62,321 bases of DNA from a virus (IMGVR_UViG_3300030202_001124:1-62321); one strand, 5' to 3'; positions 35,093 through 52,130 are shown, numbered from the stretch's first letter. Program-made: numbers and translations. Notes: generated from the sequence alone by a model not told the origin.

Positions 35093-35361
35093 GACATTTT
35101 GACGAACATACATGTATGCTTACAAGTTATTATGTTATAACCAACCAAGTGGGTTACGAGCAGTTACTAAATCGTGACTTGAAAGTTACTTTGATATTTG
35201 ATCCTACCCAAGAAGTTATAGAAGATTACCAGAATATATTTGATGAATTAATTGATTACTTTGAAGACTTAGAAGAGTATGAGAAATGCGCTCATCTTTT
35301 GCACTCTAAAAAATTAATGAGTAAACTAGAAAAAATGAGTCAGCCTCGCCACCTGGCCTAG
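35089..35361 (+). CDS. Hypothetical protein with UVR-like EEYEKCA motif
   Basis: YFEDLEEYEKCAHL motif; overlaps the stop of the previous gene. Confidence 0.55.
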   Translation: MRHFDEHTCMLTSYYVITNQVGYEQLLNRDLKVTLIFDPTQEVIEDYQNIFDELIDYFEDLEEYEKCAHLLHSKKLMSKLEKMSQPRHLA

Positions 35362-36426: not shown

Positions 36427-36607
36427 CTGAAAGTGATTGGATAAGATCTGTCATAATTTTGCAGACATTCTGAGCCTTTACTTTAGCATCAGCATGATCC
36501 CTTTCCATTAAATCTTCGTAAAGTTCAGTTATAAGGTCATGGGAGTTATTAGTCACATAATTTATGTGATTTATAGCATTTACGTCATCAACTGAAATCT
36601 TAGTCAT
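36416..36607 (-). CDS. Hypothetical protein
   Basis: Preceded by a minus-strand TATCTTTG box; overlaps the next gene. Confidence 0.6.
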   Translation of the reverse strand: MTKISVDDVNAINHINYVTNNSHDLITELYEDLMERDHADAKVKAQNVCKIMTDLIQSLSDEV

Positions 36608-36624
36608 TAGTTATCCCATCTAAT

Positions 36625-36632
36625 CAAAGATA
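36625..36632 (-). promoter_or_regulatory. -7 promoter box TATCTTTG (minus strand)
   Basis: CAAAGATA on the + strand, upstream of the start at 36607. Confidence 0.55.
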
Positions 36633-36638
36633 GTAAAT

Positions 36639-36929
36639 TTAATTAATATGTTTATTATAGATATGTGAGGAGACTGATATATCTTGCTTTTTAAACAACT
36701 CTAAATCATAAATAAATATTTCTATGCGAGAGATTTCTTTACAAATTGCTAAAATTTCATTAGCATTTAAATTATGTTTTGCCCTTTTATAATATCCAGA
36801 TTTATAAGCACAAGAACAAATAATAAATTGAATTAATCTTTTTTTATAATCAGAAAAGTAGTCTATTTCTTTATCTATTGGGCTTCTATTGTCTTCTTCA
36901 GAACTATATTTTATTACTGTTTCTTTCAT
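36639..36929 (-). CDS. Hypothetical protein
   Basis: Abuts the VRR-NUC gene in the minus-strand operon. Confidence 0.55.
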   Translation of the reverse strand: MKETVIKYSSEEDNRSPIDKEIDYFSDYKKRLIQFIICSCAYKSGYYKRAKHNLNANEILAICKEISRIEIFIYDLELFKKQDISVSSHIYNKHIN

Positions 36930-37169
36930 TTATCCTTTATATACTTCAGTTTTTATACCATGGTCATTTAATTCTTTCATTCTATATTTCTGTAATGCCG
37001 ACACATGTCCTCTTTTAGTTTTAATTTCAGAAAACAAAGCATTACAATCTTTAGGAAATGCAACAAGATCAGGAATACCATTCTTATTTGTCTTAATTAA
37101 TTTTAAAACATAGTAGCCCTGGGCTTCTAACTCTTTTATTCTTTTGGATTGTACTTGTTGTTCTGTCAT
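36930..37169 (-). CDS. VRR-NUC / Holliday-junction resolvase-like nuclease
   Basis: E..VQ...GIPDL...FSEIK...SALQ.YR PD-(D/E)xK pattern next to a SNF2 helicase. Confidence 0.8.
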   Translation of the reverse strand: MTEQQVQSKRIKELEAQGYYVLKLIKTNKNGIPDLVAFPKDCNALFSEIKTKRGHVSALQKYRMKELNDHGIKTEVYKG

Positions 37170-38401
37170 TACAAACTTAATAAGTCCTTTTTAAAATGCT
37201 TTAATGTATAATCTTTTTTATTTAATACGCTTTTGTAAATTTGTTTTTCAATACCACCTTTGGAAAACACCCAATATATTTTATTATACTTTCTGTCTTT
37301 GGTTGTCATTCTATCTCGTGACTGCCAATAGCTAGTAGCACTAAAATCTATGTTATAATATACAAGAGCTTCAGCCTTTCTTAAACTAATACCTTCTCGT
37401 CCAGAAACAATTTGCAAAGCTATAGATTTATCTGTAGAGTTAAACTCTTCTAAATCAAAACAAATAGTATCCTGGAATACTTGTTTTATAGCGTTAAGCT
37501 CTTCTTTAAACTTATAAAATATACCTATTTTTTTATTTTGAAACCTGTTTTTTATAAATTCAGCCTTGTCAGTACATAACACCATAGACTTACCACTCTC
37601 AAACTTCACAGTTCCAGAAAACATTTGATGAGTTTTACTCATTAACTTTACAGCTGTATCGGCAAGTATTACCTCCTCCTTGCCTTGTACTACTAAACTT
37701 TTCTTTAACTCACTTATAATCCCTAATACTTTTTTACACATATCTACATACAATATCTCTTCATCAGTCTGCACCTCGAACCCAGCTTCTTTTTGCGTGT
37801 AAGATATAGTAAAAGGTTTCATTTCATCTATAATAGAATTATAGCCCCCACTATAATCATTAATAGTCATAGAACCTATTTTTTTCTGCGTCACATTAAC
37901 ATACTCATGAGCAAACTTATAGAAACTCTTGTGTCGTTTAAACGGGTTGTTGTTGATTGAATAAACCTGATGATACATTTGAGAATAAGATTCAGGTGTA
38001 GGTGTTCCTGACAATAAAATTATATATGGGTTGTCATTGATCTGTATTAAAGATTTAACATCTTTAGCTCTTTTGCTTGGCTTAGGAAAAGCTCCCATGC
38101 CGTGAGCTTCATCACATATTATTACATCATAAGGAGAATAAGCTATTTTATGAAGAGACTCGTAATTGATAATAGTAATGTCAAAATCAGGATTGAGTAA
38201 ATTGTAATCATCTTGTATACTAGATATGGCTTTTTTTTTTGTTATAAACAATACGCTAGAAACGGCAAGAGAATTACTTATACTCAAACTCGTAAGTGTC
38301 TTGCCAGTTCTAACTTCCATGGCAAGATATAAAAATTTATGCTTCTTTAATACATCAATTCCTGTTTTCGCAATATTTTTTTGATAATCTCTAAGTTGCA
38401 T
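37169..38401 (-). CDS. SNF2/SF2 helicase
   Basis: LRDYQ, EVRTGKT, DEAH, LSGTP, GISL and QSRDR motifs. Confidence 0.85.
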   Translation of the reverse strand: MQLRDYQKNIAKTGIDVLKKHKFLYLAMEVRTGKTLTSLSISNSLAVSSVLFITKKKAISSIQDDYNLLNPDFDITIINYESLHKIAYSPYDVIICDEAHGMGAFPKPSKRAKDVKSLIQINDNPYIILLSGTPTPESYSQMYHQVYSINNNPFKRHKSFYKFAHEYVNVTQKKIGSMTINDYSGGYNSIIDEMKPFTISYTQKEAGFEVQTDEEILYVDMCKKVLGIISELKKSLVVQGKEEVILADTAVKLMSKTHQMFSGTVKFESGKSMVLCTDKAEFIKNRFQNKKIGIFYKFKEELNAIKQVFQDTICFDLEEFNSTDKSIALQIVSGREGISLRKAEALVYYNIDFSATSYWQSRDRMTTKDRKYNKIYWVFSKGGIEKQIYKSVLNKKDYTLKHFKKDLLSL

Positions 38402-38403
38402 AA

Positions 38404-40812
38404 TTAAAATTCAATAATTCCGTCAGTTTCCAACTCTTGTTTATGTCTAAATCTGATCCATCTTTGAGTATCTCTACCTTCTTCAGGATCACAGTCATAC
38501 TTAAATTGATTATACGCAATAAGCCACTTGTTAAATTTAATTCTTGACACAGTCATTTTTGCTTTTGGGGCAAAGTCTGGATTGTCTTCTATAAAATCAA
38601 TGTACAAGTCTTGTTTATAAGACCTTTTATTTAATCGCAACGACTCATGTTCAGTCATTCCTTTTAACAATCCACACCATTCTATAAACTCATGGCATGT
38701 TTCAGCTGACAATCTTCTAATTTTAAGATTTACAAACTCGCTTTTTATAAGACCATGTTGTAAATACATTTGTAAGCATTCTATCATGTAATTATCAAAA
38801 GCACACCACTCGTCTTCATCCCATTCTCCAAACATTAATCTTCCAAACTCTCTTAATGGAGTATTGTCTCTAGTATAATGTTGGGCCAATTCTAACTCCC
38901 ATTTTCTTCTTTCAAACGAACTTCCTTTTCCTTTAATAGCATAATTAGTAGTAATACAAACTTTTGGAGATTTCTTAAATGGTATTTTAATTGCATCTTT
39001 ATTTTTCTTTTCTAATGTCAAGCCTTCTGTTACAACAGAAAATAATCTTTCAAAATTAAAATGCTTACTAACATCATCAAAACAAAGTATTTGAGTGTCG
39101 GCACTTACAAGTTGATAAGCAAAACTTTTTTCAAAATTAAAAGACTTACCATCAATAACTACTAATTTTTTCATATACCCTAATGCAGTCATAAACAAAC
39201 CCTTGCCTGTGCCACCCTCTGGATTATCAGAAATAACTTCATCATTTAATATGGTTGCAGGACAATAAGATAAATTTTTCCAGGCGTGCAATAAATAACC
39301 AATAGTTGACTTCATTGAGTTTATTCTTGTTTTTTCGCCATTACAAATATTCTCTATAAATGATTTGTAATCACAATCTGATGATTCGCAATCTATATAT
39401 GGCCTATCAATTACATGGTCTTTCCAAACATAGCCACCTAAATCTAAATAATCTATAGATTTAATTTCATTATATGTAATTTTTACAGCTGAATTATTGT
39501 AATATAAATAAGCACTACCTTTTGTGTCTTCAATAAAATACACATCAATAGATGAAAGCAAGGTCAAAAACTCTTCCCTAAAATACCGAGTACATTCAGC
39601 AAAATGATTATAAGCCTGGAGTTCGTCAAGCTCTATCAAATGATTTAATATAAAATCTTTAATTTCTTTTTCACTTGTGTGGTCAATTAAATTATTAGTT
39701 ACCCTTACAAACACATAGTTCTTACTTCCCTCTGGATTAAACTTATAAAATCCATGCTCTTCTAGAAAGTGTTTAAACATGATGTGTATAATTTTGACTA
39801 CACCTTTTTCTGATACAGACCAAAATTTTTGATTCGTTTGCTCTTCTTCAATTCGATGAATAACATTATCAATCGTTCCGACCTCAATACTTGAATCCTC
39901 TAATTGAGATCGGATTTCTTTTTTTGGCACTCCTCTTTTAAGTTTTGCTCTAACCAAATTTACTTTATCTTCATCTTCATAGTACTTTGTGCCAAAATTT
40001 TGTACGTTTTGATAAGCTGAATCAATCGTTCTTTTAATTTCTCTTTTGTTAAAATCTTTAGATGAAAAATTATTCATCACATATTCGGCTAAAGTTTTGT
40101 TAATTCCAAAATCATTAAATGCTGAGGCCAACACAAACACATTATGATTACGTTGTCCCTCTATCATTGGAAACTTTTTTTCCCACCACTTGACTAGTAT
40201 TTCTACAATTTTATTTTCATCTGTTATAGGTATTGTTGGAACATCAATATTTTTTGTAACCTCATTAAATTGTTCTTCCTCAATTTTATCCCAGGTGCTT
40301 GATAGTTCGTTTACATATATTAAAGGGTCATAAGACTCGTAACAAACTCTAGATACATTTTTACAAGTCTTATCAAAATAAGGAGAATTTAAATTGTTTT
40401 GTATACTTATAAAGTAATTGACATGATTTTTAGGATCAGCGGGTATTCTAACTAACGCTTTTAAACCTTTGCCACTTGGAGAAACAAACACACTAAATAT
40501 ATATTTGTTTTTTGTAAGTTTTTCCTTGTCAGACAACAACTCTTTGTTTGTTTTGTAACCATCAAAATCTAAACACAACAACCCGCTATGCTCTTGTAAA
40601 GATTTATCGTTTCTTTTGGTAAACTTTCCACTAAAACAAACTGCTGGTAATTTTTGTTTTAATAAATTCCTAGTGTCTTTATTTTTTTCTAATCTAATTT
40701 TTTTTACTAAGTCTTTGGAGGCTCCCTCTTGTATTCTTTTTAGAATTACATGGACATCTCTAAAAAAAGGCTGGGAGGTAACCTTGATGTCTTTAAATAT
40801 TGTTATTTGCAT
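38404..40812 (-). CDS. Primase-helicase (BT4734/VirE-N primase, PriCT, SF3-like ATPase); likely start MQITIF at 40812
   Basis: KLPAVCFSG, LCLDFD, SPSGKGLK, SRVCYESYD; EGQRN; EGGTGKG Walker A and LCFDD Walker B. Confidence 0.8.
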   Translation of the reverse strand: MQITIFKDIKVTSQPFFRDVHVILKRIQEGASKDLVKKIRLEKNKDTRNLLKQKLPAVCFSGKFTKRNDKSLQEHSGLLCLDFDGYKTNKELLSDKEKLTKNKYIFSVFVSPSGKGLKALVRIPADPKNHVNYFISIQNNLNSPYFDKTCKNVSRVCYESYDPLIYVNELSSTWDKIEEEQFNEVTKNIDVPTIPITDENKIVEILVKWWEKKFPMIEGQRNHNVFVLASAFNDFGINKTLAEYVMNNFSSKDFNKREIKRTIDSAYQNVQNFGTKYYEDEDKVNLVRAKLKRGVPKKEIRSQLEDSSIEVGTIDNVIHRIEEEQTNQKFWSVSEKGVVKIIHIMFKHFLEEHGFYKFNPEGSKNYVFVRVTNNLIDHTSEKEIKDFILNHLIELDELQAYNHFAECTRYFREEFLTLLSSIDVYFIEDTKGSAYLYYNNSAVKITYNEIKSIDYLDLGGYVWKDHVIDRPYIDCESSDCDYKSFIENICNGEKTRINSMKSTIGYLLHAWKNLSYCPATILNDEVISDNPEGGTGKGLFMTALGYMKKLVVIDGKSFNFEKSFAYQLVSADTQILCFDDVSKHFNFERLFSVVTEGLTLEKKNKDAIKIPFKKSPKVCITTNYAIKGKGSSFERRKWELELAQHYTRDNTPLREFGRLMFGEWDEDEWCAFDNYMIECLQMYLQHGLIKSEFVNLKIRRLSAETCHEFIEWCGLLKGMTEHESLRLNKRSYKQDLYIDFIEDNPDFAPKAKMTVSRIKFNKWLIAYNQFKYDCDPEEGRDTQRWIRFRHKQELETDGIIEF

Positions 40813-40830
40813 TTGTTTGTTAAATTTAAT

Positions 40831-40914
40831 TGGCATTAAAAGAGGACTCGAACCTCAATTACTCGTCAGTAAATCTCGCCTCCTCCTTGAGTGTGGCTTC
40901 TCCTGATTTAATGC
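40831..40914 (-). ncRNA. tRNA-like element (acceptor stem and T-arm; non-canonical D and anticodon arms)
   Basis: GCATTAAA/TTTAATGC 8-bp closing stem then CA; GAGG-TTCGAGT-CCTC T-arm; TTACT-GACG-AGTAA extra arm; intergenic. Confidence 0.5.
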
Positions 40915-40922
40915 TTGGTTAG

Positions 40923-41180
40923 TTAAAATATATCCTCAGACGATTTGCTTTTGGGCGCATCATTTGATTCAGGTTGTGTTGGTGGAACATAAGGAGCTTT
41001 GACATCGCCAGATTTATAACTATTACCAGCTTGTGAAATATTGTTCCACATACTTACTTCAAATTTTTCTCCTTTGTACATACCCCAACCAGTATGATCA
41101 GGTTGTTTACCCTCTTTTTTTGTGTTGGTAAATAAAATTATTTTACCCTCTTTGTACTTGCTTTCTTTGTTTTCTTCCAT
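40923..41180 (-). CDS. Putative single-stranded DNA-binding protein (DUF736-like)
   Basis: LF.N..KEGKQPD.TG...VSMW pattern with an acidic tail ending EDIF. Confidence 0.6.
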   Translation of the reverse strand: MEENKESKYKEGKIILFTNTKKEGKQPDHTGWGMYKGEKFEVSMWNNISQAGNSYKSGDVKAPYVPPTQPESNDAPKSKSSEDIF

Positions 41181-41371
41181 TATTTAATTATTTTAATTTC
41201 ACGCTCCAATCTATTAATAGTATCATAGAGAATTGATTCTTTCTCTAATCTAGAGGCGCAGGTGTTTGGAACATCCACCCACATAATACCTTTTCTTGTT
41301 GTGTTTACACCACTACAAAATTTAAAGAATTTCTTTATGAATGTAGTTATGTATGTTATGAGTCTTTTCAT
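41180..41371 (-). CDS. Hypothetical protein
   Basis: Fills the gap between exonuclease and SSB genes with overlapping ends. Confidence 0.45.
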   Translation of the reverse strand: MKRLITYITTFIKKFFKFCSGVNTTRKGIMWVDVPNTCASRLEKESILYDTINRLEREIKIIK

Positions 41372-42059
41372 TGCTAAAAAATTTATTATATACTTCAGTT
41401 GCTTTTTCTACTTTATTTTTACCACCCTCTATAAAATTAGGGGAGCAGTCGTAGATACCTAACTGAAACGATTGTTTATCTATTACATAAAACCTTAATG
41501 GTTTATTAAAAAACCTTTGATATAAGTAAGCCTGTGAATCGTAATTATAATTCATACAGCTCCAGTAAAATTTAGTTATATCATTGGTTGACTTGATGTC
41601 AATTACAAATTCATCTGTAACAATATCAGCTTTACCTTTCCAGGTGTTTCCCATTATTTGTGCAATTTGAGGCACTTCATACTGGTTGCCCTCTTTATAA
41701 ATTTCATCAAACATTTCAAGATTAGATTGCATTTTGTCAATCAAAGCGTCAAGATGAATCTTTTCTTTTTGTAATAATAATATCTCATCTTCGCCACACG
41801 CTTCTTTATATGCTTTTGTGGATCTAGAGGCTACATCTATTATTTGGAAATCTTTAAGTTTTTTTGGTTCCAAAATTGCAGTATGGAAATAATTACCCTC
41901 TACCATAGCTTTTGTTTTGGGTTGTGAAACCTTAAATTTTTCAGGAAACTTAAGCAAGTTTAGTATATCGGAGTTTGACAAAAATTGTTGTCCATATTCC
42001 CCATAATATTTGTTATCATCAGTCAAATTACTAATAATTTGTTTTGTAGAATCAGCCAT
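41322..42059 (-). CDS. PD-(D/E)xK exonuclease VIII/RecE-like (DUF3799 type)
   Basis: LSNSDI, G..FHTAILEP, KGKADIV...DIKST, Y.YD.QAYLY motifs. Confidence 0.8.
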   Translation of the reverse strand: MADSTKQIISNLTDDNKYYGEYGQQFLSNSDILNLLKFPEKFKVSQPKTKAMVEGNYFHTAILEPKKLKDFQIIDVASRSTKAYKEACGEDEILLLQKEKIHLDALIDKMQSNLEMFDEIYKEGNQYEVPQIAQIMGNTWKGKADIVTDEFVIDIKSTNDITKFYWSCMNYNYDSQAYLYQRFFNKPLRFYVIDKQSFQLGIYDCSPNFIEGGKNKVEKATEVYNKFFSNEKTHNIHNYIHKEIL

Positions 42060-42060
42060 A

Positions 42061-42651
42061 TTATATTTTTTTAGCTATTTCTTTTTTAACCTGAGAAGTA
42101 ATTTTATACTTAGTAGATAAAGTTTGAACTATTTTTTCTAATCCATCTCCACGCTTTTTAGATATGTAATTAAGAACTTTATCCCAATTACCGTCCCCTA
42201 CCTTTAAAGTGTATGTAATCTCTTTTTTTGGCTCTTTAGGTACGTTAGATTTAGGACTTGCAATATTTACTAAATCTTCGCCTTTAAATATAGCTATACC
42301 TAATCCATGCATGGCAATAGCTTTTGCAGTAGACCTTTGTATGGCAGTATTGACATCCATAGATGTTATTTTAGAGATAGGAATTGAATTGTTTCTGTAA
42401 TCCATTACAGGTAAATAATCAATATGTTCAATGCCATTTACTATTATACCAACTTTTACTGAAGCAGTATTTCCATCAGTAAAATAAGGCAATTCTGTTT
42501 GTGCTGATTCATAAACTTTTCTTTGTGCATCAGGATAAGCCTCTTTAACAAGCGACCAAGCATTTGCCCATGACAAGTAATTAAAATTTCCCTTTTTTTC
42601 CGCCATTCCTTTTACGTTGATGGCAGACAACTTTTTAAAATAATTTTCCAT
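42061..42651 (-). CDS. Sak-type single-strand annealing protein (DUF1071)
   Basis: YLSWANAW, LPVMDYRN, DVNTAIQRSTAKAIAMHGLG motifs. Confidence 0.85.
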   Translation of the reverse strand: MENYFKKLSAINVKGMAEKKGNFNYLSWANAWSLVKEAYPDAQRKVYESAQTELPYFTDGNTASVKVGIIVNGIEHIDYLPVMDYRNNSIPISKITSMDVNTAIQRSTAKAIAMHGLGIAIFKGEDLVNIASPKSNVPKEPKKEITYTLKVGDGNWDKVLNYISKKRGDGLEKIVQTLSTKYKITSQVKKEIAKKI

Positions 42652-43060
42652 TTTGTTTCGATTTTAGTTTATTTAATTTTCTTTTGTTGATTGTGTATTT
42701 GTTCAATATTCTCTCTCGGCTATTTTTTAAGTTCTGTATGTGCTTGTCATTCTTCCGAGTATTGACTTCTGTTTTTATATTATTCTCTATGATATCTAAT
42801 TTATGTAAGCAGTTGTTAATTGCTACTAGAAGAACCCCTTTTTCCCAACCATGGTCGTAGAAATAATCATATTCCTCTAAGGTGCATTCTCTTCCATAAT
42901 CGCCACCCTTAGCTACATTAAATATTTCTATTCTATCTTTAAATTTTTCTATCTTGACTCCTTTACATAAAATTGTTTGACTCTTGGCTTTGTTTAAACA
43001 CACTGCCTTTGGGTCTTCTAACGCTTGTCTATATATATATTCTAAATCCCAATTAATCAT
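42635..43060 (-). CDS. Hypothetical protein
   Basis: Overlapping ORF in the operon. Confidence 0.6.
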   Translation of the reverse strand: MINWDLEYIYRQALEDPKAVCLNKAKSQTILCKGVKIEKFKDRIEIFNVAKGGDYGRECTLEEYDYFYDHGWEKGVLLVAINNCLHKLDIIENNIKTEVNTRKNDKHIQNLKNSRERILNKYTINKRKLNKLKSKQNGKLF

Positions 43061-43349
43061 TGGCTTGAATATCTTTTATAAGTTTATTATAATCAGGATC
43101 AGAATCAATAAGTTTTTTTGCCTGTCTGTATCCATGAATAATAGTGGAATGAGAAACATCGTAATTATAGTCTTGCATAAAACATCTTATATAGCTTATT
43201 CTAATAGGTCTTTCCATGCAAAGAAAATACAACATTTGTCTAGCATCTACTACGTCTCTTTTTTTTGATTTGGTAAACATTTCTTCTAGTGTAAGATGAA
43301 ATTGTTTTGCGATTGCATTTGAATATTTAATAAATATTTCTTTTTTCAT
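43053..43349 (-). CDS. Stand-alone DnaA domain IV (C-terminal HTH)-like protein
   Basis: K.KKRDVVDARQMLYFL...HSTIIHG matches the DnaA domain IV signature R....ARQ.AMYL...DHSTV.H. Confidence 0.75.
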   Translation of the reverse strand: MKKEIFIKYSNAIAKQFHLTLEEMFTKSKKRDVVDARQMLYFLCMERPIRISYIRCFMQDYNYDVSHSTIIHGYRQAKKLIDSDPDYNKLIKDIQAND

Positions 43350-43368
43350 TTAATTTAATTAAAGTTTT

Positions 43369-43418
43369 TACCACCAAAACCCCTTAGCTTTTGACTAAGA
43401 GGCTGGCGCAATTTAAAC
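43369..43418 (-). promoter_or_regulatory. Repeated leader hairpin element, copy 1
   Basis: TTTAAA..CGCCAG-CCTCTTAG-loop-CTAAGGGG-TTTTGGTGGTA, 20 nt before the ATG at 43349. Confidence 0.65.
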
Positions 43419-43502
43419 AAACAAACCTTATTATACAAACAGAAATTCTGTTTCGTATAGTTCTTCTAATTCAGGATCAATAATATACATAAGAATACGA
43501 AT

Positions 43503-43787
43503 TTACTTTATTTTTTTAGCAATTCCTAATGAATTAATTTCATAAAACCCTACTTTCGATTTTTTCATGTTTTCTTCATACTCCTCATCTCCATCAGCAA
43601 ATCCACATGCCTCAGCATCTACGTTGCTATAAACTTTACCTATGTAATTGCCATAAACCCTGAACCAATTTAACTCCTCCGTTATCTTAGCTTTATGCTC
43701 CAGAACTTTGTTAAATTTTTTTGTCAATTTTAACAAATCCTCTTGTGTTTCTAATAATTCTCCGTACAATTCTGTTGTATCTTTCAT
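43503..43787 (-). CDS. Hypothetical early protein
   Basis: Clean ORF; W...Y...I...Y.NVD.EAC.FAD segment similar to ORF 43925. Confidence 0.6.
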   Translation of the reverse strand: MKDTTELYGELLETQEDLLKLTKKFNKVLEHKAKITEELNWFRVYGNYIGKVYSNVDAEACGFADGDEEYEENMKKSKVGFYEINSLGIAKKIK

Positions 43788-43791
43788 AACT

Positions 43792-43932
43792 TTATTTATC
43801 TTCTAAATTTTCGATTAAATTTTGGGCTTCAGTTATTTTTTCTAAAGCTTTTTTTTTGTCTTCGCTTTCTAAAGCATACTCGTCTACTTCCTGATAAACA
43901 TTATCAAGCATTACTATTATATGTCTAGGCAT
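43792..43932 (-). CDS. Small hypothetical protein (likely start MPRHII at 43932)
   Basis: Start overlaps the end of ORF 43925; the longer tracked version overlaps that gene heavily. Confidence 0.5.
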   Translation of the reverse strand: MPRHIIVMLDNVYQEVDEYALESEDKKKALEKITEAQNLIENLEDK

Positions 43933-44215
43933 TACTATCCTCCTCCCTTTTATCAGCATATTCACAAGCATTGTTATAAATGTTTCTATGATTATCCTGA
44001 ACAAAATCCACAAAATTATTAAACCATATATATAAAGAGGTTTGTGAAAACTTCTCTACATCAGTCGGTTCGGTTTCTTTTAAATGAGATATTAATCTAT
44101 CTAAGCCATGAACAACGCCCTTGTGTTCATATTCTGAATGACTATCGTTAACCCATTCAGTATCGTTTTTTAAGTCGGTAGCAATTGCTACAATTCTATC
44201 TAAATTCATATTCAT
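43925..44215 (-). CDS. Hypothetical early protein
   Basis: Packed ORF with ATGA overlap. Confidence 0.6.
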   Translation of the reverse strand: MNMNLDRIVAIATDLKNDTEWVNDSHSEYEHKGVVHGLDRLISHLKETEPTDVEKFSQTSLYIWFNNFVDFVQDNHRNIYNNACEYADKREEDSNA

Positions 44216-44418
44216 GATTTTTTCTTTTTAATTGATTCGATTATAATGTCTTCACATTTTTTCATGTGTTTTTTCATAGGCATGAAATCATCAAAGTCGA
44301 TGTGTTCGTGTCTATCGCCAAATGTTAACGAGATTTTCTCTATTAAATCTTTTGGCGTGAATGTGTCGATGAATTCATCGACAACTTGCTGATCTGTTTT
44401 TTTTACTTTTTTACTCAT
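44212..44418 (-). CDS. Hypothetical early protein
   Basis: AT-rich leader, packed ORF. Confidence 0.6.
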   Translation of the reverse strand: MSKKVKKTDQQVVDEFIDTFTPKDLIEKISLTFGDRHEHIDFDDFMPMKKHMKKCEDIIIESIKKKKS

Positions 44419-44445
44419 AATTTATTATTTAATTTAATTTAATTT

Positions 44446-44745
44446 TTAATCTATTGTTCCTGATGTATTACCTCTTTTTAAATAATACTCTTTTTCTTTT
44501 ACTCTTTCCCTTTGCAATGCTTTTGCATGATTATAAATCTGAGCCTCAAAAAACCCTCTAACTTCCTCCATTATTTCTGTGCCATAATTTTTAAAAGTAT
44601 CGTGAAGAATTTTATCATAGTCATCAAAATCTAAATAATTAATATCTAAATTTTTAGCTATGGACTCTATATCTTCTGTTGACCATATCATTTCACTACC
44701 CCTATAATCTGAATATTGGTAAGTGGTTTTTATTTCTTTACTCAT
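44446..44745 (-). CDS. Hypothetical early protein (likely start MSKEIK at 44745)
   Basis: Start overlaps the end of the upstream gene. Confidence 0.55.
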   Translation of the reverse strand: MSKEIKTTYQYSDYRGSEMIWSTEDIESIAKNLDINYLDFDDYDKILHDTFKNYGTEIMEEVRGFFEAQIYNHAKALQRERVKEKEYYLKRGNTSGTID

Positions 44746-44980
44746 GGTTTTCATGTTTATTATCGTATGCGTATCGCCAAACTTCATCGTGAAATTCATC
44801 ACACAGAAAGTCAATATAAAAAGTGGTTATATCCATGGCGTTTAAACGCACTTCTTTAATTTCTATATCATCTTCAAAAGGATGTTCGTGTGTTTGCTCT
44901 TTCCAATAATACTTATAATCTATCTCAAGATCATAACTTCCCATGTTTTCTTTTATTGTATAAGTTCCTTTTACATTCAT
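44738..44980 (-). CDS. Hypothetical acidic early protein
   Basis: Packed ORF; contains the CGTTTAAACG palindrome (RLN). Confidence 0.6.
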   Translation of the reverse strand: MNVKGTYTIKENMGSYDLEIDYKYYWKEQTHEHPFEDDIEIKEVRLNAMDITTFYIDFLCDEFHDEVWRYAYDNKHENHE

Positions 44981-45240
44981 GATAAATTGAATTTAGCTTT
45001 AAACTTTTTTTCTTCCTCTAATCTTTGATATGGTGTTATTCCCAGAAATTCATCAATTAGAATTTCAAGCTGATATTCTGTTAAATGATGATACTCATCA
45101 TTTCTTTCTGAATTTTCAATAAACGTACCGCCTCCGTCCCCGTCATTCCAAATTTCAATTCCCTTTACGTTTGTTTTACATTCATACCCTACTCCTCTTC
45201 GAGTATTAAATTCTCTGTAACTTGTTACTTTTAATTTCAT
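44977..45240 (-). CDS. Hypothetical early protein
   Basis: TRRGVGYE and WNDGDGGGT motifs; packed ORF. Confidence 0.6.
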   Translation of the reverse strand: MKLKVTSYREFNTRRGVGYECKTNVKGIEIWNDGDGGGTFIENSERNDEYHHLTEYQLEILIDEFLGITPYQRLEEEKKFKAKFNLS

Positions 45241-45443
45241 TATTTAAATGTTTGTTTGATTAGACATAATATCATCCATGAAGTAGTTCCTAAAAGAGAC
45301 AAAATAAATGCCCATAGAACGCCCATAGCGACTCCCTGTAAGAGTGTTTCAATAGTAGGGGTAATATAGATTAATAAATCTATTATAACGTATCCTATAA
45401 AGAACATAACCATAGTTAATAAAATAATTAATAGTTTTTTCAT
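45240..45443 (-). CDS. Small two-TM membrane protein
   Basis: Two long hydrophobic stretches. Confidence 0.6.
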   Translation of the reverse strand: MKKLLIILLTMVMFFIGYVIIDLLIYITPTIETLLQGVAMGVLWAFILSLLGTTSWMILCLIKQTFK

Positions 45444-45445
45444 AG

Positions 45446-45718
45446 TTATTTATTTTTTAATTCTGTTTCTTTTTCAAATTGTGCGTGTTGTTTCCAATAG
45501 GAAAAAAACATTTCAATTTCTTCAATATCTTTTTTAAAGTTTTCATTTTGTCCACTTGCATAGATATTCTCTACTATTTCGTTAACATGATGTTCTACTT
45601 TTTTTAAGTCATCAATTAAAAATTCTTGTAATCTTGGACTGATTAACTTTCTATTTTCTTTTAATAGTTTGGCTTTATCTTTTTCTAGCTGAGCAATTTT
45701 TATTTCTGATTTATTCAT
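45446..45718 (-). CDS. Hypothetical coiled-coil protein
   Basis: Clean ORF with AT-rich leader. Confidence 0.6.
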   Translation of the reverse strand: MNKSEIKIAQLEKDKAKLLKENRKLISPRLQEFLIDDLKKVEHHVNEIVENIYASGQNENFKKDIEEIEMFFSYWKQHAQFEKETELKNK

Positions 45719-45736
45719 AATTAATAATTTACTTTT

Positions 45737-45776
45737 AAAAAAAATGCCGAGGGGTTTGGAGTATCGCCACCCCTCG
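45737..45776 (-). terminator. Terminator-like hairpin downstream of the tRNA
   Basis: CGAGGGG...CCCCTCG stem followed by GCA and T8 on the minus strand. Confidence 0.55.
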
Positions 45777-45826
45777 TTAGAAATTAGTACCCTTTTTTCA
45801 ATACTCGCCTATTTCTACATTTATTG

Positions 45827-45899
45827 TTGCGGGTAAAGGATTCGAACCTATGACCTTGAGTTTATGAGACTCACGAGCTGACCACTGCTCTAACCCGCA
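45827..45899 (-). tRNA. tRNA with CAT anticodon, fMet-like scaffold
   Basis: TGCGGGT/ACCCGCA acceptor, GAGC/GCTC D stem, TGAGT-CTCATAA-ACTCA anticodon arm, GGTTCGAATCC T loop; CCA not encoded. Confidence 0.9.
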
Positions 45900-45907
45900 T
45901 TTATTTT

Positions 45908-46258
45908 TTACCATGCGTCCATATGAACAACATCGCCTGTCATTGCTTTCTTTTTCATTTCCGCCTCTAACAACATATACTCGTCAAACATTTTAGTAAA
46001 ACTTTCTTGCAAGGTTTTTTTACTTCCCTTGATTCCAAAGTATTCTTTTACTTGTGATACTTTCCACCCTCTATGAGGTTTTACATTTAACTTAGTCCAA
46101 AGGGAGACATCTCTTTTTGAAACTATTAAATTGTACTTCGCCAAATTCATTTTCTTTCCACCATTGATACAATTTTCCATGTAGTGCAGAAAATCAGCCC
46201 AAAATTTAGTGTGGCGTTTAAACACCATCGGATAATCATTTAAATTAATTTTAGTCAT
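45908..46258 (-). CDS. Hypothetical early protein
   Basis: KPHRGWKVSQVKEYFGIKG motif; clean ORF. Confidence 0.65.
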   Translation of the reverse strand: MTKINLNDYPMVFKRHTKFWADFLHYMENCINGGKKMNLAKYNLIVSKRDVSLWTKLNVKPHRGWKVSQVKEYFGIKGSKKTLQESFTKMFDEYMLLEAEMKKKAMTGDVVHMDAW

Positions 46259-46494
46259 TTTATTTATTTTAAATTACAGGTGTTTTAATTTGTCTTTGAG
46301 TAAGTGCCACCATTTTACACTTTTTTACTATTTATTTGATAGTTCAATTGTAATGTTTAAACTCGGGAACTCTGACCTTTTACGCGTTGTCCTTTAAGAT
46401 TAATAACTTTTATTTCTAAGTGTTTTAATCTTTTGCTGTCAATTACTTTGCTAATATATAACTAAATATTTATTAATTCCTAATTAATTTATAA

Positions 46495-46806
46495 TTATTT
46501 TCTTTTACCTCTGTTATTTTTTTTCTTCGTTACGTTTAAACGCTCTTTAATTTGTGCTTTGTCGTACTCGTTCGCTGACTTCCACAAACTTTTTCCGATT
46601 CTTTCTAAAAATGTTTCTAATCTTTCAACCTCTGTTTCTTCCATTACATTGTGGTTAGTTAATAAAGATGTAATTTCCTCAATGTTTGTTTTTTTATCTT
46701 TTTGAAGAAAAAAAGTCTCTAAAATTTCGCCGACTCGATCCCTTAATATTGCGGATTCAATTTTAATGTGATTTAATTTTGATAATTCAATATGTTTACT
46801 GCTCAT
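46495..46806 (-). CDS. Hypothetical early protein (likely start MSSKHI at 46806)
   Basis: AT-rich leader before 46806; contains the palindrome (RLN). Confidence 0.55.
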   Translation of the reverse strand: MSSKHIELSKLNHIKIESAILRDRVGEILETFFLQKDKKTNIEEITSLLTNHNVMEETEVERLETFLERIGKSLWKSANEYDKAQIKERLNVTKKKNNRGKRK

Positions 46807-46823
46807 GATTTTATTTAATTTAA

Positions 46824-47051
46824 TTAATAATAATTTATAATTTCTTCGGGTGTCTCGTGGTTTTCCCAAATTACATTCTTTATACTTCGCACTTCAAATG
46901 TTGTTTCTTTTGTCGTGTAATTGTAATGCGGGTAAACGTCAATAAATTTGCCCTTGAAGAATTTTAATAATTCGCTTTTAGTATAGACCGCGTTTAAACG
47001 TTGTCTTTTTGCTTTCTTTACATTGTGGAAAAACTGCGCTTTGTTGCTCAT
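46824..47051 (-). CDS. Hypothetical early protein
   Basis: Clean ORF; contains the palindrome (RLN). Confidence 0.6.
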   Translation of the reverse strand: MSNKAQFFHNVKKAKRQRLNAVYTKSELLKFFKGKFIDVYPHYNYTTKETTFEVRSIKNVIWENHETPEEIINYY

Positions 47052-47068
47052 AATTTATTTATTTTAAT

Positions 47069-47713
47069 TTAACTTATTTTTAATTGTTCTTTTTTCATGC
47101 TTGCCCCGTGTCCCATGTACGCAATTATTTTGTTTTCTTTGCTCCAACAGGCGCGACACTTCAAACACTTTCCGCCATTCTCGTACGCCTTACAGATTTT
47201 GAAACTAGGATTTAATTTTGTTTTGTCGCTTATTATTGTGCTTTGATACTCCGCCCCGTCTATGGTTTCCCCGTTCACACCGTCGGAACTATAACGGACA
47301 ACGACGTTAGGGAGCGCGTTTAAACGCTCTAATATTGGGCGGAACCTTGAAAGTTTGTACATTCTTGTCGGGATCCAATGGAAAACCCAAGGCGTTGCGG
47401 TGCAAACTTCGAGGATTTTTTCAGCTAATTTAATACTGTAAATGTCGCCTGAATCAAACCACCTAAAAAAGCGGTCATTTAAATTCAATTCCTCAGTCAT
47501 ATCTTTTACCCAATCGTCACGCCTCCAATCTTTGCGATTTTCTTCGCGTACGCTTTTGACGTTCTTAAATCTATAATTTCCGCCGACCGCGTAGCAACCT
47601 TTACAGGCGGGAACAAGTTCCCCGTTTTTATCACGGGAGGCGGGGCAAGTGTCCAACGCTTGAAGACTCCAAGATCGACATGGCATTTTCCCCGCTTTGC
47701 TAAATCTTATCAT
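47069..47713 (-). CDS. GP88-like (radical-SAM-related, Cys-rich) protein
   Basis: KMP..SWSL.A..TCP, C.GCYA..GNY.F, RWFDSGD, HWIPTR, C..CRACW motifs. Confidence 0.75.
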   Translation of the reverse strand: MIRFSKAGKMPCRSWSLQALDTCPASRDKNGELVPACKGCYAVGGNYRFKNVKSVREENRKDWRRDDWVKDMTEELNLNDRFFRWFDSGDIYSIKLAEKILEVCTATPWVFHWIPTRMYKLSRFRPILERLNALPNVVVRYSSDGVNGETIDGAEYQSTIISDKTKLNPSFKICKAYENGGKCLKCRACWSKENKIIAYMGHGASMKKEQLKIS

Positions 47714-47735
47714 AATTTAATTTAATTAAAGTTAC

Positions 47736-47786
47736 TACCACCAAAACCCCGCAACGAATGAACGAGGCGAGGCGATGAGGTTTAAA
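47736..47786 (-). promoter_or_regulatory. Repeated leader hairpin element, copy 2
   Basis: TTTAAA..CATCG-CCTCGC-loop-GCGGGG-TTTTGGTGGTA upstream of the ATG at 47713. Confidence 0.65.
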
Positions 47787-47791
47787 AATTT

Positions 47792-48004
47792 TTAGTCGAA
47801 TAATTCTTCTAGTTTACATTTTAAAAGGTTGTTTTTGTCCAACTGGCGCAATGCTTCAAAAATTACATTCATTGAGAGTTTTTGTTCGGATGATGTTAAA
47901 TTAACATTATCTAATTTATCTAAATATTGACCGATTGAATTCATCGCTAATACTTCCGCGTTTGAGAACATTTTAATTGTTTTAACTTCTTTTTGTGTGT
48001 TCAT
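47792..48004 (-). CDS. Hypothetical early protein (likely start MNTQKE at 48004)
   Basis: Leader TTAATTAAAACCCTTAAAAATATG nearly identical to that of ORF 48715-48963. Confidence 0.6.
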   Translation of the reverse strand: MNTQKEVKTIKMFSNAEVLAMNSIGQYLDKLDNVNLTSSEQKLSMNVIFEALRQLDKNNLLKCKLEELFD

Positions 48005-48040
48005 ATTTTTAAGGGTTTTAATTAAAAACTTAATTGTTTT

Positions 48041-48092
48041 TACCACGAAAACCCCGCGCTATTGCTAGGCGGGGCGTCGGGGCGTTTAAACG
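48041..48092 (-). promoter_or_regulatory. Repeated leader hairpin element, copy 3 (includes a CGTTTAAACG palindrome)
   Basis: CGTTTAAACG..CGACG-CCCCGC-loop-GCGGGG-TTTTCGTGGTA. Confidence 0.65.
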
Positions 48093-48095
48093 CGG

Positions 48096-48707
48096 TTAAG
48101 CCTCCGCCATATATCCCGCCTCATTTTGACAAGCTGGGCAAGTAAAATTTGTAATCAAATCAAAGTTTTTGCGCGATGTTCTGAAACTGAACCCGCACCC
48201 GTTTCCGTAATCGTCGGTGCATTCAATTTTTATATTTCGACTAGTTTGCTTTTTGCGTGCGCTGAGTAATATTTCCGCGTGTGGATATTTGCCTAATTTC
48301 TGAGCTATTTTTTCAAGCTCTACAATTAAACCGGGGCTCTCTGTGGTCATGGTCATTCTACCTTCTAAACCAATGGCGTGCGCCATGTCTCGAAATACTT
48401 TTCCGTGACCGTTTTTACAGTCGTCTATCGCGTGGATTAATTCATGAGCCAAAACGCCGAGCGTTTTTATAGTGTCATCATTTTGCGGGCTCATAAAAAT
48501 CTCATTCACATTAGCCGAAGAATGACTGCGCGGATGACATACGCCGAGTGTTAAAAATCTTGATGCCTTAGTTTTACGCGTTCCAAGTGCGAACCCGCAA
48601 GATATTTTAACGTCCTTTGGGATAGTCAAATTTGCGGTTTTAAATACTCCTTTTTGAAGTAAATTTTTAGCTTCGTTAAGCCAATTTTCACGAGTTAATT
48701 TTTTCAT
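48096..48707 (-). CDS. SprT-like zinc metalloprotease with C-terminal Zn ribbon
   Basis: LAHELIHA...GHGKVF HExxH motif; C-terminal Cys residues including CPAC. Confidence 0.75.
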   Translation of the reverse strand: MKKLTRENWLNEAKNLLQKGVFKTANLTIPKDVKISCGFALGTRKTKASRFLTLGVCHPRSHSSANVNEIFMSPQNDDTIKTLGVLAHELIHAIDDCKNGHGKVFRDMAHAIGLEGRMTMTTESPGLIVELEKIAQKLGKYPHAEILLSARKKQTSRNIKIECTDDYGNGCGFSFRTSRKNFDLITNFTCPACQNEAGYMAEA

Positions 48708-48714
48708 AATTTTA

Positions 48715-48963
48715 TTATTTTAATAAGTTAGTATCAACAAAAGACGCATTTTCTAAATCTTCCGTAATAGTGTTAAAGATTCTCATAGATGTACCCATTA
48801 AGCGCCCATCCCAATAAGATGGCGCATAAATTAAATATTCAGTTTCATTTAATTTTTTTACTTTAAAATCTGATAATCTTTGATTAAAAAATTTTAATGT
48901 ATTTGCGCTGAAATAATGAGGCGCATTTTTTTTCGTTCTTTGTTTTATTTCTTGTATAGTCAT
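48715..48963 (-). CDS. Hypothetical protein, first gene of the early arm
   Basis: MTIQEIK...HYFS..TLKFF pattern; preceded by a -7 box. Confidence 0.65.
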   Translation of the reverse strand: MTIQEIKQRTKKNAPHYFSANTLKFFNQRLSDFKVKKLNETEYLIYAPSYWDGRLMGTSMRIFNTITEDLENASFVDTNLLK

Positions 48964-48995
48964 ATTTTTAAGGGGTTTTAATTAAACAATTTAAG

Positions 48996-49003
48996 CAAAT
49001 ATA
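48996..49003 (-). promoter_or_regulatory. -7 promoter box TATATTTG driving the early arm
   Basis: CAAATATA on the + strand about 33 nt upstream of the first early ATG. Confidence 0.6.
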
Positions 49004-49472
49004 ACGAATAAATGTTTATAAACTAATTAAATTATAATTAAATCATGTTTAAACACTACCCAACAGAAAAAAAATAATTTTTTTTATACTTCATTCAATG
49101 CGTTTAAACGCTTTTAATATCTGTGCGTCAATTGTTTATATCTGTTGTATTTGGGGAGGTTTTGTTTTCGTTTATTTGAGCGCGTTAGGGGTTTACTCTT
49201 TAACCGCGTACGCGTGAACAGGGGTAAAAGGGGGGAAGGTTAACAGATTGAGACGTTAAGGCGTAATATGTAGGGGTGTACAGGTACAATATAACGCGCG
49301 CGTGTGCGTGTGGTGTGCTACCCCTTAGACCAAAAGCTAAAAAATCCGAAAAGAAATTTTGATTTCCTCTGTTGACCTCTGTAAAATATCGGTTTCATAT
49401 TGGGGGGTGTGTTGCTCAGAAGTATATATAACCCTCAGGTTCTTTGTATCTGATGCTCAAAAAAATTTTTAC

Positions 49473-49864: not shown

Positions 49865-50059
49865 AGTTGTCGTAAGAAAAAAAAGTTGTCGTAATAGTTG
49901 TCGTAAATTAATTTATTGATAATCAATACTTTAACTATATATTTATATTAAAACGTCGTCTTCGACAACTAAAAGTACTATTATACTATAGAAAAAAAAT
50001 AAAATAAATAAAAAATACTATAGGCTGTATATACAACAAAAAGTTGTCGAAAGCGACGT
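49865..50059. repeat. Iteron-like direct and inverted repeats (putative origin)
   Basis: AGTTGTCGTAA at 49865, 49884, 49896; 18-bp inverted repeat 49953-49970 / 50042-50059 around an AT-rich spacer. Confidence 0.7.
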
Positions 50060-50082
50060 AAACAATTTGTTTATTTATTTAC

Positions 50083-50090
50083 TATCTTTG
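50083..50090 (+). promoter_or_regulatory. -7 promoter box TATCTTTG for groEL
   Basis: TAnnTTTG 25 nt before the ATG at 50115. Confidence 0.65.
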
Positions 50091-50114
50091 TTTAAAATTA
50101 AATTAAATCTTAAC

Positions 50115-51876: not shown

Positions 51877-52130
51877 AGCCAATAGGTAAGTATATTATCA
51901 TCAACAAGATTGATGAAGAAATAAAAACAAATTCAGGGTTATTATTATCAGCAGCCGATGTGCAAGAGTTTCGTTACATAAAAGGCCAAGTTGTAAAACC
52001 AGGCAGTGAGGTAAGCGTAATAAAAGAAAACGATTTAATTTATTACGACAGCGGCTCAGGTCACAGCATGCTTATAAACGATGAACCCTACACAATTATT
52101 CTTGAGAGAGATGTCGTTGTTGTTTTATAA
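51873..52130 (+). CDS. groES: Co-chaperonin GroES
   Basis: MKPIGKYIII...KTNSGLLL...GQVVKPG...ILERDVVVVL. Confidence 0.9.
   Translation: MKPIGKYIIINKIDEEIKTNSGLLLSAADVQEFRYIKGQVVKPGSEVSVIKENDLIYYDSGSGHSMLINDEPYTIILERDVVVVL

Follow-up and report, generated by a model that had tools for sequence, protein, structure and literature searches.

A 10-bp palindrome, CGTTTAAACG, is repeated along the early arm of a phage genome. Its sites are under selection at the level of DNA and are co-inherited with a family of SprT-like genes across many unrelated phages. On balance, the sequence comparisons favour the palindromes being cis-acting sites that work together with the early SprT-like protein, and the likeliest mode of action would be direct, specific binding by a symmetric dimer. 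The window analysed here is the whole 62,321-nt stretch of viral DNA (IMGVR_UViG_3300030202_001124:1-62321). No description of the palindrome array was found in print.

A palindrome concentrated in the early arm

All seven perfect copies of CGTTTAAACG reported in the initial annotation were recovered, at 37935, 44839, 46533, 46991, 47317, 48083 and 49101, and six of them do fall within 4.3 kb (44839-49110). None of 100 dinucleotide shuffles reached seven copies (mean 0.03, largest 1). A count of k-mers against a Markov background, named beforehand as a check, showed enrichment at every order from 1 to 5; no other 10-mer of the window is as over-represented as CGTTTAAACG (14 observed on both strands against 0.064-0.129 expected). 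Two further copies carry one mismatch, namely the near copy already noted at 46215 (CGTTTAAACA) and one at 36297 that had been overlooked. The conserved part of the motif is an 8-base core, GTTTAAAC, of which CGTTTAAACG is the preferred full form. The core occurs 15 times in the window, and 12 of these copies lie within the 14.1-kb minus-strand early arm. The structural arm had been described as free of copies, which is true of the 10-mer but not of the core, three copies of which are located there (7369, 9061 and 31114). The upstream edge of the array is formed by the 49101 copy, in a divergent promoter region that also holds the 49046 copy; the sites mark the early arm, as had been suggested, from its promoter region onwards.

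The early-arm sites, eight of which lie inside ORFs, are listed here with the SprT-like gene; no strand is assigned to the sites.

37935..37944, perfect CGTTTAAACG, in the SNF2-type helicase gene 37169-38401 (minus strand), read P-F-K-R
39770..39779, core copy TGTTTAAACA, in the primase-helicase gene
42991..43000, core copy TGTTTAAACA, in ORF 42635-43060
44839..44848, perfect CGTTTAAACG, in the small ORF 44738-44980, read EVRLNA; 10/10 in L357, L360 and L362
46215..46224, near copy CGTTTAAACA with intact core, in ORF 45908-46258; conserved in L360
46354..46363, core copy TGTTTAAACT, intergenic; core kept in 2/3 close relatives
46533..46542, perfect CGTTTAAACG, in ORF 46495-46869, read KERLNV
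46991..47000, perfect CGTTTAAACG, in ORF 46824-47051, read RQRLNA
47317..47326, perfect CGTTTAAACG, in the GP88-family gene 47069-47713, read LERLNA
48083..48092, perfect CGTTTAAACG, 3 nt past the SprT-like stop, followed by a terminator-like hairpin
48096..48707, minus strand, second early-operon gene, encoding the SprT-like zinc protein of 203 aa, which has the HELIH motif and, at its C terminus, a four-cysteine ribbon
49046..49055, core copy TGTTTAAACA, 83 nt upstream of the first early gene, in the divergent intergenic region
49101..49110, perfect CGTTTAAACG, 138 nt upstream of that same gene

Could the array simply reflect chance or local base composition? The CpG observed/expected ratio is 0.90 in the early arm vs 0.57 elsewhere, and it reaches 1.47 between 44800 and 49150. 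However, with Markov models of orders 1-4 trained on the early arm only, 0.012-0.024 copies of CGTTTAAACG are expected against the seven observed, and 0.035 against six in the densest 4.35 kb; the word is also found again in phages that are unrelated. Chance or local composition as the source of the array, including the locally higher CpG raised in the initial annotation, was rejected with the shuffles and with both the global and the early-arm models; we place its probability close to nil.

Selection on DNA

The initial annotation had read the site as R-L-N in four ORFs and as F-K-R in the helicase, and these readings are correct. The third reading frame of the palindrome contains TAA. A coding gene can therefore read it in just two ways, and little can be made of a 4:1 ratio between them. 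That selection acts on DNA rather than protein is supported by conservation and by the way in which sites are built. In close relatives of 80-93% nucleotide identity (L356-L364 and L369; 10 positions per site), 369/380 site positions are identical vs 2015/2264 positions of the 40-nt flanks. The 47317 site is kept at 10/10 in all six close relatives, with 65-66 of 79-80 flanking positions identical in three of them. The 49101 site is likewise 10/10 in the five relatives, from ten compared, whose alignment reaches it.

New sites in the primase and helicase genes of other lineages are formed with rare codons and residue changes. In the L116 clade, the primase site reads ACG or TCG, then TTT AAA, then CGC or CGT, where relatives have other residues and encode arginine by AGA or AGG. 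The helicase site of the window reads CCG TTT AAA CGA, where relatives mostly have CCT or CCA TTT and other residues; its column is not the one at which the L116-clade site arose. The 39770 primase site may be inherited coding sequence, as the core is present at the same column in 12 of 81 aligned primases. The palindromes are under DNA-level selection.

An alternative explanation is that the motif is an RNA or DNA hairpin element, serving as a terminator tip, a processing site or a stem-loop that shuffles early gene cassettes. Some copies in relatives do lie in long perfect palindromes or in G/C stems followed by T runs (L116 at 1840 and 2026; L204 at 12565), and sites are frequent at gene ends. 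In the window, however, the perfect palindrome extends by at most 2 bp at all 15 cores, as it does by 0-1 bp at most copies in the related genomes G001 and G002. Most early-arm copies are within ORFs, and sites also arise in the conserved primase and helicase genes. A terminator scan of the window found none at any palindrome site. One copy had been taken to form the TTTAAA of a hairpin (element 3), which is not supported; the 48083 copy adjoins the terminator-like hairpin on the 5' side and stays outside the loop in the minimum-energy fold, which is itself ordinary (z = -1.72). A hairpin function therefore seems improbable. As to promoters, the window sites do not coincide with boxes of the Bacteroidetes type (one of 12 near a box vs 0.45 expected). 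The sites of some relatives overlap promoter-like hexamers.

Co-inheritance with SprT-like genes

Among near-complete relatives of the phage, 15/18 are without any copy of the motif. The SprT-like gene is present in two of the 18 records that are at least 90% complete, and both have 21 copies. Only one of the 81 ORFs of the window, 48096-48707, for which the initial annotation had proposed no part, matches G001 and G002 and none of seven motif-poor complete genomes. A phmmer search with all ORFs of at least 35 aa gave the same gene as the sole match to all four motif-rich sets and to no poor one. The SprT gene was not found in the motif-rich partial records G003-G007 (52-69% complete) or in G027 (11 copies, rated complete), and the early-arm ends of these records appear to be cut. 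The initial annotation had held that absence from related phages would speak against the array. Such absence is literally what was seen, yet it coincides with the absence of the SprT-like gene and thus refines the idea of an array rather than refuting it.

The association was also seen in both directions outside the family. In 79 IMG/VR loci chosen solely by SprT homology, GTTTAAAC was observed 353 times vs 20.9 expected, with at least three copies in 43 loci. High-GC loci carry a one-base variant, GTTTACAC (88 observed vs 3.0 expected). With both forms counted, 64/79 loci have at least three copies vs 6/80 and 15/80 control loci. Many of the 79 loci are related, however, and thus represent a smaller number of independent lineages. 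The other 15 loci have fewer than three sites, and one (L275) has none. Three control words were not enriched in these loci: the core backwards, the G/C ends around a reversed centre, and the core with its middle letters swapped. In the reverse direction, searching for pairs of copies spaced 165-195 nt apart yielded 30 stretches of GC 0.32-0.62, and tblastn located SprT in 14 of them, in ten as the sole homolog of the window. SprT was present in 16/26 of the whole records and in 5/6 of those at least 90% complete; the sixth, without SprT, is a 29-bp tandem array. The form of the motif does not change across phages of GC 0.32 to 0.58, an E. coli phage included.

The sites are also placed with respect to the gene. 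In 41 of 62 SprT loci with GC <0.6, a site lies within -10 to +60 nt of the SprT stop, and in 12 of these the motif contains the TAA stop. An increase in site density is seen about 1-1.5 kb before the stop, and beyond the stop the density remains near 1 per kb for over 6 kb. Of the other gene families within 3 kb of SprT, none is common to more than 14 of the 62 loci. Together, these data show that the sites are co-inherited with the SprT-like family across many unrelated phages.

The survey bears on two further explanations. In the first, the palindromes would be operators bound by one of two proteins encoded in the window, the DnaA-domain-IV HTH protein (43053-43349) or the wHTH-like protein (52096-52578). 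Both have DNA-binding-type domains: the former matches Bac_DnaA_C at 35.4 bits, above the cut-off, and the latter a SarA/Rot-like family at 19.9 bits, below it. However, homologs of the former (51-75% identity) occur in all ten related genomes compared, seven of them motif-free, and homologs of the latter in 5/7 motif-poor genomes. Both proteins are absent from the unrelated loci rich in the motif, and SprT alone is common to those loci. We consider such operators highly doubtful. The broader proposal of a dimeric binder acting on the early arm survives in part: DNA-level selection, the early-arm location and the plausibility of a symmetric binder remain, but these two candidates do not track the motif.

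In the second, the motif would belong with the HIP-type iterated palindromes, linked to methylation or driven by repair, or would serve a restriction system as a modification or decoy site; the core is the PmeI site. Its occurrence within and outside genes, partly built by synonymous changes, would suit this. Against it, the motif is confined to one arm (12/15 window cores in 14 kb, 33/46 in G001), and pairs of sites in cellular genomes are tandem or unrelated repeats, with SprT in 1/38 stretches. The high-GC variant is non-palindromic, and no methyltransferase domain was found among the 30 window ORFs scanned with Pfam. No enrichment was seen in host genomes. An origin of this kind is very unlikely.

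The SprT-like protein

The protein encoded by 48096-48707 matches Pfam SprT-like at 26.9 bits (cut-off 25.6) and phrog_6361 at 1.2e-29, and the Pfam family matches 42 of 43 aligned homologs (E up to 0.05). Its AF2 model has a mean pLDDT of 88.4, and the best PDB fold matches are to human SPRTN (6MDX/6MDW; probability 0.95-0.98, yet with low TM of 0.30-0.38 and E of 5e-3 to 8e-3). H88, E89 and H92 of the HExxH motif are invariant in the 43-row alignment, as are R157, K160, C163 and C171; K152, K153, Q154, C190 and C193 are nearly so. About one in three conserved columns falls in the zinc ribbon and its basic stretch. Both are retained in the two homologs without HExxH, which are still located among motifs (L230 with 31 cores, L221 with 12). 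A homodimer model scored 0.61 vs 0.00 for the best of three controls, a mark that was reached by 20/30 proteins solved as same-chain pairs and by 1/23 solved as single chains. Three runs share at least 64% of contacts, with a partner pLDDT of at least 79 and a symmetric interface. The model makes a two-fold symmetric binder of the palindrome plausible, and the SprT-like protein is probably what reads the motif.

The SprT/Spartan fold is that of DNA-dependent proteases that cut DNA-bound proteins. Another DNA-binder, either a host protein or the product of an undetected phage gene, might recognise GTTTAAAC, and the SprT-like protease might be co-inherited for acting on that protein rather than for reading the site. 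The SPRTN fold match and the invariant HExxH would suit this arrangement, and the co-occurrence of SprT and motif also fits it. However, the motif is identical across phages of such different GC, the E. coli phage among them, so a host reader would need to be conserved across phyla. In addition, no second phage gene is common near SprT, and the homologs lacking HExxH remain among motifs. We regard a separate reader as rather unlikely.

A model for the array

The array begins in the divergent promoter region (49101 and 49046), one site follows 3 nt past the SprT stop, and others are spread across the early and replication genes downstream. In the favoured reading, binding by the SprT-like protein itself, the protein, made from the second early gene, would load onto the early arm. 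Once loaded, it could throttle early transcription, by autoregulation or as a roadblock. Alternatively, the protein could be a Spartan-like, DNA-dependent protease that the sites keep on the early DNA of the phage, within reach of bound proteins that it could cleave. The high-GC variant GTTTACAC is both non-palindromic and strand-biased (71 copies on the same strand vs 17), a pattern easier to reconcile with a monomer or with a promoter-linked role than with a simple dimer on a palindrome.

More speculatively, phage SprT-like proteins may be widespread sequence-addressed, DNA-tethered proteases or regulators that read GTTTAAAC, or GTTTACAC in high-GC phages. A Spartan-type dimer would then be parked along the first-expressed arm and could remove or block host proteins on the incoming DNA, such as polymerase, silencers or translocating defence nucleases. 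If true, this would provide a function for a gene family that spans Bacteroidota phages, actinobacteriophages and coliphages.

Comparison with known systems

A 2025 mycobacteriophage annotation paper describes phage SprT-like proteins as structurally similar to the SPRTN family and gives no function (PMC12363180). The protein of the window resembles SPRTN, Wss1 and bacterial SprT in its Pfam match above cut-off, its HExxH and four-cysteine zinc subdomain, and its best fold matches (6MDX/6MDW); unlike them, two homologs found here (L221 and L230) have no HExxH. To our knowledge, the solved members of the SPRTN/SprT family bind DNA by structure and are not known to read its sequence, and we know of no site array for SPRTN, Wss1 or SprT.

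ArdC-type antirestriction metalloproteases are named alongside SprT-like peptidases (PMC7824862). No ArdC domain was found in 48096-48707 with Pfam. One Bordetella phage SprT homolog is annotated 'antirestriction protein'. Plasmid ArdC is similar in combining a zincin-type protease with a DNA-binding part and in being an early product of an incoming mobile element. It differs in having a separate ssDNA-binding domain at its N terminus, and we are aware of no sequence-specific site array for it. The C-terminal ribbon also recalls the P2/P4 Ogr/Delta zinc-finger activators: weak, partial matches to Ogr_Delta were obtained for 3/43 homologs (best 1.5e-5; the window's own 0.039, below cut-off), but the remainder of 48096-48707 is a protease fold.

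The sites themselves resemble those of parS/ParB or KorB, which are short dimer-bound palindromes scattered over a domain and tolerated in coding genes. Here, however, the tracked gene is from another family and a partition context is not evident; no ParB-like gene was seen among the 30 window ORFs scanned with Pfam. The other parallel is with the stoperators of Cluster A mycobacteriophages, sites of the L5-type repressor that occur by the dozens across the genome beyond promoters and are thought to block transcription. Stoperators are asymmetric, oriented and read by the HTH immunity repressor of a temperate phage, whereas the site of the window is an 8-10 bp palindrome (or its one-base variant), is concentrated in one arm and tracks a protein of SprT/Spartan-like zinc protease fold. 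An orientation of the stoperator type was seen only for the high-GC variant, and the present array occurs in phages of many host phyla. What the two systems share is one short site used many times over, conserved beyond its flanks and co-inherited with one phage protein, here its putative reader.

Distribution of the palindrome in the window

Across the 62,321 bases of this complete virus record, the 10-base palindrome CGTTTAAACG was found at each of the seven positions where the initial annotation had placed it. The mean was 0.03 copies in 100 dinucleotide-preserving shuffles, none of which reached seven. Under Markov models of orders 1-5, the k-mer check proposed at that stage, it is the most over-represented 10-mer of the window (14 counts over both strands vs 0.064-0.129 expected). 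The near copy reported at 46215 does differ by one mismatch, and a second such copy, at 36297, had been overlooked. What is conserved is an 8-base core, GTTTAAAC, found 15 times in the window. Twelve of these are in the early arm (35326-49443), where 0.66-1.16 are expected, and three are in the remaining 48.2 kb.

Layout of the window
Up to 35.3 kb, plus strand: large structural ORFs
35.3-48.96 kb, minus strand: early and replication genes
45826-45899, minus strand: tRNA-Met (CAT), among small early genes
48096-48707, minus strand: SprT-like zinc protein, second gene of the early operon
48964-49443: divergent intergenic region

The minus-strand genes encode an SNF2-type helicase, a primase-helicase, a PDDEXK nuclease, a Sak annealing protein, a DnaA-C HTH protein, the tRNA-Met, a GP88-family protein, the SprT-like protein and a DUF7447 protein. 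Eight of the 12 early-arm cores lie within ORFs, always in one of the two frames that do not read the in-motif TAA. Of the four intergenic cores, two precede the first early gene, a third comes 3 nt past the SprT stop and the fourth is at 46355.

Could local composition account for these counts? CpG has an observed/expected ratio of 0.90 across the early arm, with 1.47 at 44800-49150, vs 0.57 elsewhere. The composition objection fails because models fitted to the early arm alone still expect only 0.012-0.024 copies of the 10-mer. The dinucleotide make-up of the two arms (35326-49443 vs the rest) is in itself unlike. The second most enriched palindromic 10-mer of the window is TACAGCTGTA (3 copies vs 0.2 expected).

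Codon usage at the sites reflects selection on the DNA. In the motif-rich clade, a primase column has the codons ACG or TCG, TTT, AAA, and CGC or CGT; whether the opening residue is T or S, its codon ends in CG, and the arginine is encoded by CGN, where relatives carry AGA, AGG or another residue. The helicase site of the window (CCG TTT AAA CGA) and that of the clade fall at different alignment columns and are therefore of independent origin. Metagenome contigs that match the early arm at 80-93% nucleotide identity keep the sites: 369 of 380 site positions were identical vs 2015 of 2264 in the 40-nt flanks, a comparison that gives a direction rather than a p-value since close relatives are not mutually independent. 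The site array is thus real, restricted to one arm and constrained at the DNA level.

The sites do not behave as hairpins or as promoter elements in the window. Perfect palindrome extension is at most 2 bp at every window core and 0-1 bp for most copies in G001 and G002, two motif-rich relatives. The copy at 48083 had been assigned to a hairpin; the RNA fold sets the motif beside a terminator-like hairpin and outside it, and the fold is unremarkable (z = -1.72). The Bacteroidetes-type -7 box was found 25-70 nt downstream of one of 12 window sites vs 0.45 by chance, which is no association.

Several other elements of the window were recorded. The tRNA-Met is closest at the DNA level to tRNA genes from large phages of Vibrio and Roseobacter. 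In the AT-rich region upstream of a chaperonin-like ORF (50067-51716; assigned by eye), GTTGTCGTAA occurs three times in direct orientation over about 45 nt, with a variant and an inverted copy nearby (49866-50060); the group resembles iterons or a set of operators. A near-identical stretch, TTAATTAAAACCC(C)TTAAAAATATG in the minus-strand reading, precedes the early genes starting at 48046 and 48963 (47990-48046 and 48964-49000), and neither copy holds a Shine-Dalgarno-like purine run. Beside the upstream site pair, at 49227-49260, is a noncoding G-rich element made up of GGGGAAGGT and GACGTT with a short gap between them. It recurs in other loci (L116 944-960, L124 662-678, L234, L250 and L259), and the exact pattern was present in 9 of 385 loci, from about four different phages, with seven of the nine shown to be motif-rich. 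L167 and L169 are stretches of the motif-rich G001 and G002.

Occurrence among related phages

Loci retrieved with the primase-helicase are true relatives of the phage, with 68-83% identity. In 80 such loci (1.19 Mb), 68 copies were found, 66 of them within seven loci. Of the 27 whole records, two (G001 and G002) have 21 copies apiece, at least 19 of them in the early arm. Five partial records (G003-G007) have 4-9 copies, G027 has 11, G008 and G009 (each about half complete) have one each, and 17 have none. The initial annotation had set absence of the enrichment in related phages against its reading. The enrichment is indeed missing from the nearest core-gene relatives, as only 3 of the 18 records at least 90% complete have a match, yet the array is real: enrichment can be genuine though absent from the closest core-gene relatives because the motif follows an accessory gene.

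The record G027 (source of locus L139; 105,284 bases, rated 100% complete) resembles two joined phage genomes. Its 11 copies lie at 117-35115, with none in the 22 kb around a second primase copy. The start of the motif-rich part, at base 117, falls within the early arm; the other half is similar to a second, motif-poor genome.

The 80 loci retrieved with GP88 were rejected as relatives, having only GP88 in common with the window in the three checked; they hold 6 copies in 852 kb and were used solely as controls. One of them, an unrelated GP88-bearing phage contig (L050, 4255-7394), has a palindrome of its own, TTCGTCTAGACGA(A/T), in five full copies and one partial copy within AT-rich stretches upstream of GP88. 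These share the CGT...ACG ends of the window motif, with a different centre, and are unrelated to it.

One gene tracks the motif within the family

The 81 window ORFs were compared by tblastn with the complete motif-rich G001 and G002, the partial motif-rich G003 and seven motif-poor genomes. The SprT-like gene at 48096-48707 was the only ORF that both G001 and G002 have and all seven motif-poor genomes lack. A phmmer search with all ORFs of at least 35 aa returned the same single gene and added three motif-rich loci (L203, L204 and L206). Among the 27 related records, the gene was found in G001 and G002 only: G003 (69% complete) gave no match, it is absent from the known part of each of the partial, motif-rich G003-G007, and the motif-rich G027, rated complete, is also without it. 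The two proteins first suggested as binders do not track the motif. The HTH protein (43053-43349) is present in all ten genomes, motif-poor ones included, and the wHTH-like ORF (52096-52578) was found in five of the seven motif-poor genomes.

The motif and the gene in unrelated phages

The association was also observed beyond the family. The four nearest IMG/VR homologs of the SprT-like gene (45-47% identity) each have 4-6 cores around them. A motif-only scan, which used two 10-mers 165-195 nt apart and no protein information, returned 30 stretches with GC of 0.32-0.62. A SprT homolog was found by tblastn in 14 of these, in 10 of which it was the sole window homolog, and by phmmer in 15. In whole records outside the window's own family, the gene was present in 16 of 26 and in five of the six at least 90% complete; the sixth, together with one fragment, consists of tandem repeats that chance to include the word.

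In the converse direction, 79 loci were picked by SprT homology alone (33-55% identity, from a 5-row alignment). They contain 353 cores vs 20.9 expected: 216 vs 14.0 at GC below 0.45 and 134 vs 6.5 at 0.45-0.6. Above 0.6, the one-base variant GTTTACAC takes over (88 vs 3.0 expected). Control words and control loci showed no enrichment in the comparison with SprT loci, and at least three sites were present in 64 of 79 SprT loci vs 6 of 80 and 15 of 80 control loci. The layout is conserved as well. Among the 62 loci with GC below 0.6, 41 have a core at -10 to +60 nt relative to the SprT stop, and 12 of these have the TAA stop inside the motif. Site density rises from about 1-1.5 kb upstream of this stop and stays near 1/kb for more than 6 kb downstream, vs about 0.15/kb further upstream. 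No other gene family within 3 kb of SprT was common to more than 14 of the 62 loci. In E. coli phage ECO1230-10, one of five cores lies just after a TATAAT box, between the box and the downstream SprT-like gene (orf1). The array is thus co-inherited with one gene family across unrelated phages, in a conserved gene-plus-site layout.

Microbacterium phage Zeta1847, which has SprT and no GTTTAAAC, was considered as a counter-example and set aside: it carries 22 copies of GTTTACAC, mostly in promoter spacers. This variant is not palindromic and is strand-biased (71 vs 17). The bias and the promoter positions point to a transcription-linked role in high-GC phages.

A scan of cellular genomes returned 38 stretches and no sign of a host-wide motif. 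SprT was present in one (L319), and all four inspected (L335, L337, L342 and L350) were tandem or other repeats. In the Ignavibacteria MAG contig L342, a perfect palindrome of 24 bases that includes the motif occurs five times with a period of about 65 bp (354-620); these copies look like a CRISPR-type repeat array, unrelated to the phage sites.

The SprT-like protein

The product of 48096-48707 scores narrowly above the Pfam SprT-like cut-off and matches phrog_6361, a family of unknown function. Its AF2 model has a mean pLDDT of 88.4, and the best PDB fold matches were to human SPRTN, at high probability and low TM. A viral library search returned SprT-named phage proteins, the zinc ribbon gave weak Ogr/Delta matches, and no match was obtained in a PDB sequence search with this protein or in an NCBIfam search with five homologs. 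HExxH and four cysteines are conserved among the homologs. Two of them (L221 1324-1923 and L230 8417-9037) have lost HExxH and kept the C-terminal ribbon, with many sites around both, including 31 cores within 10.7 kb around the L230 homolog.

A two-copy model scored 0.61 vs 0.00 for the best of three controls, a mark met by 20 of 30 proteins solved as one-chain pairs and, among 23 single-chain structures, by one. Three runs share at least 64% of contacts, with a partner pLDDT of at least 79 and a symmetric interface. The modelling supports a predicted dimer.

Implications

From the joint inheritance of gene and sites, we infer that the SprT-like protein may read the site, probably as a dimer, and that it would regulate or guard the early arm. 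Hundreds of cultured phages have an annotated SprT-like gene, and 162 records were found. The passages on these proteins in two papers (PMC12363180, PMC7824862) go no further than a resemblance in structure and a guess that host proteins are cleaved, and leave the role unknown. In the literature searched, no published description linked the core or the variant word to phage SprT-like genes. A fixed 8-base word travelling with a gene across host phyla is directly open to experiment, as the site and the protein are both defined and cultured systems such as E. coli phage ECO1230-10 exist. If the protein does read the site, the Spartan family would gain its first sequence-specific member, and phages would have a new means of organising or guarding their early DNA.
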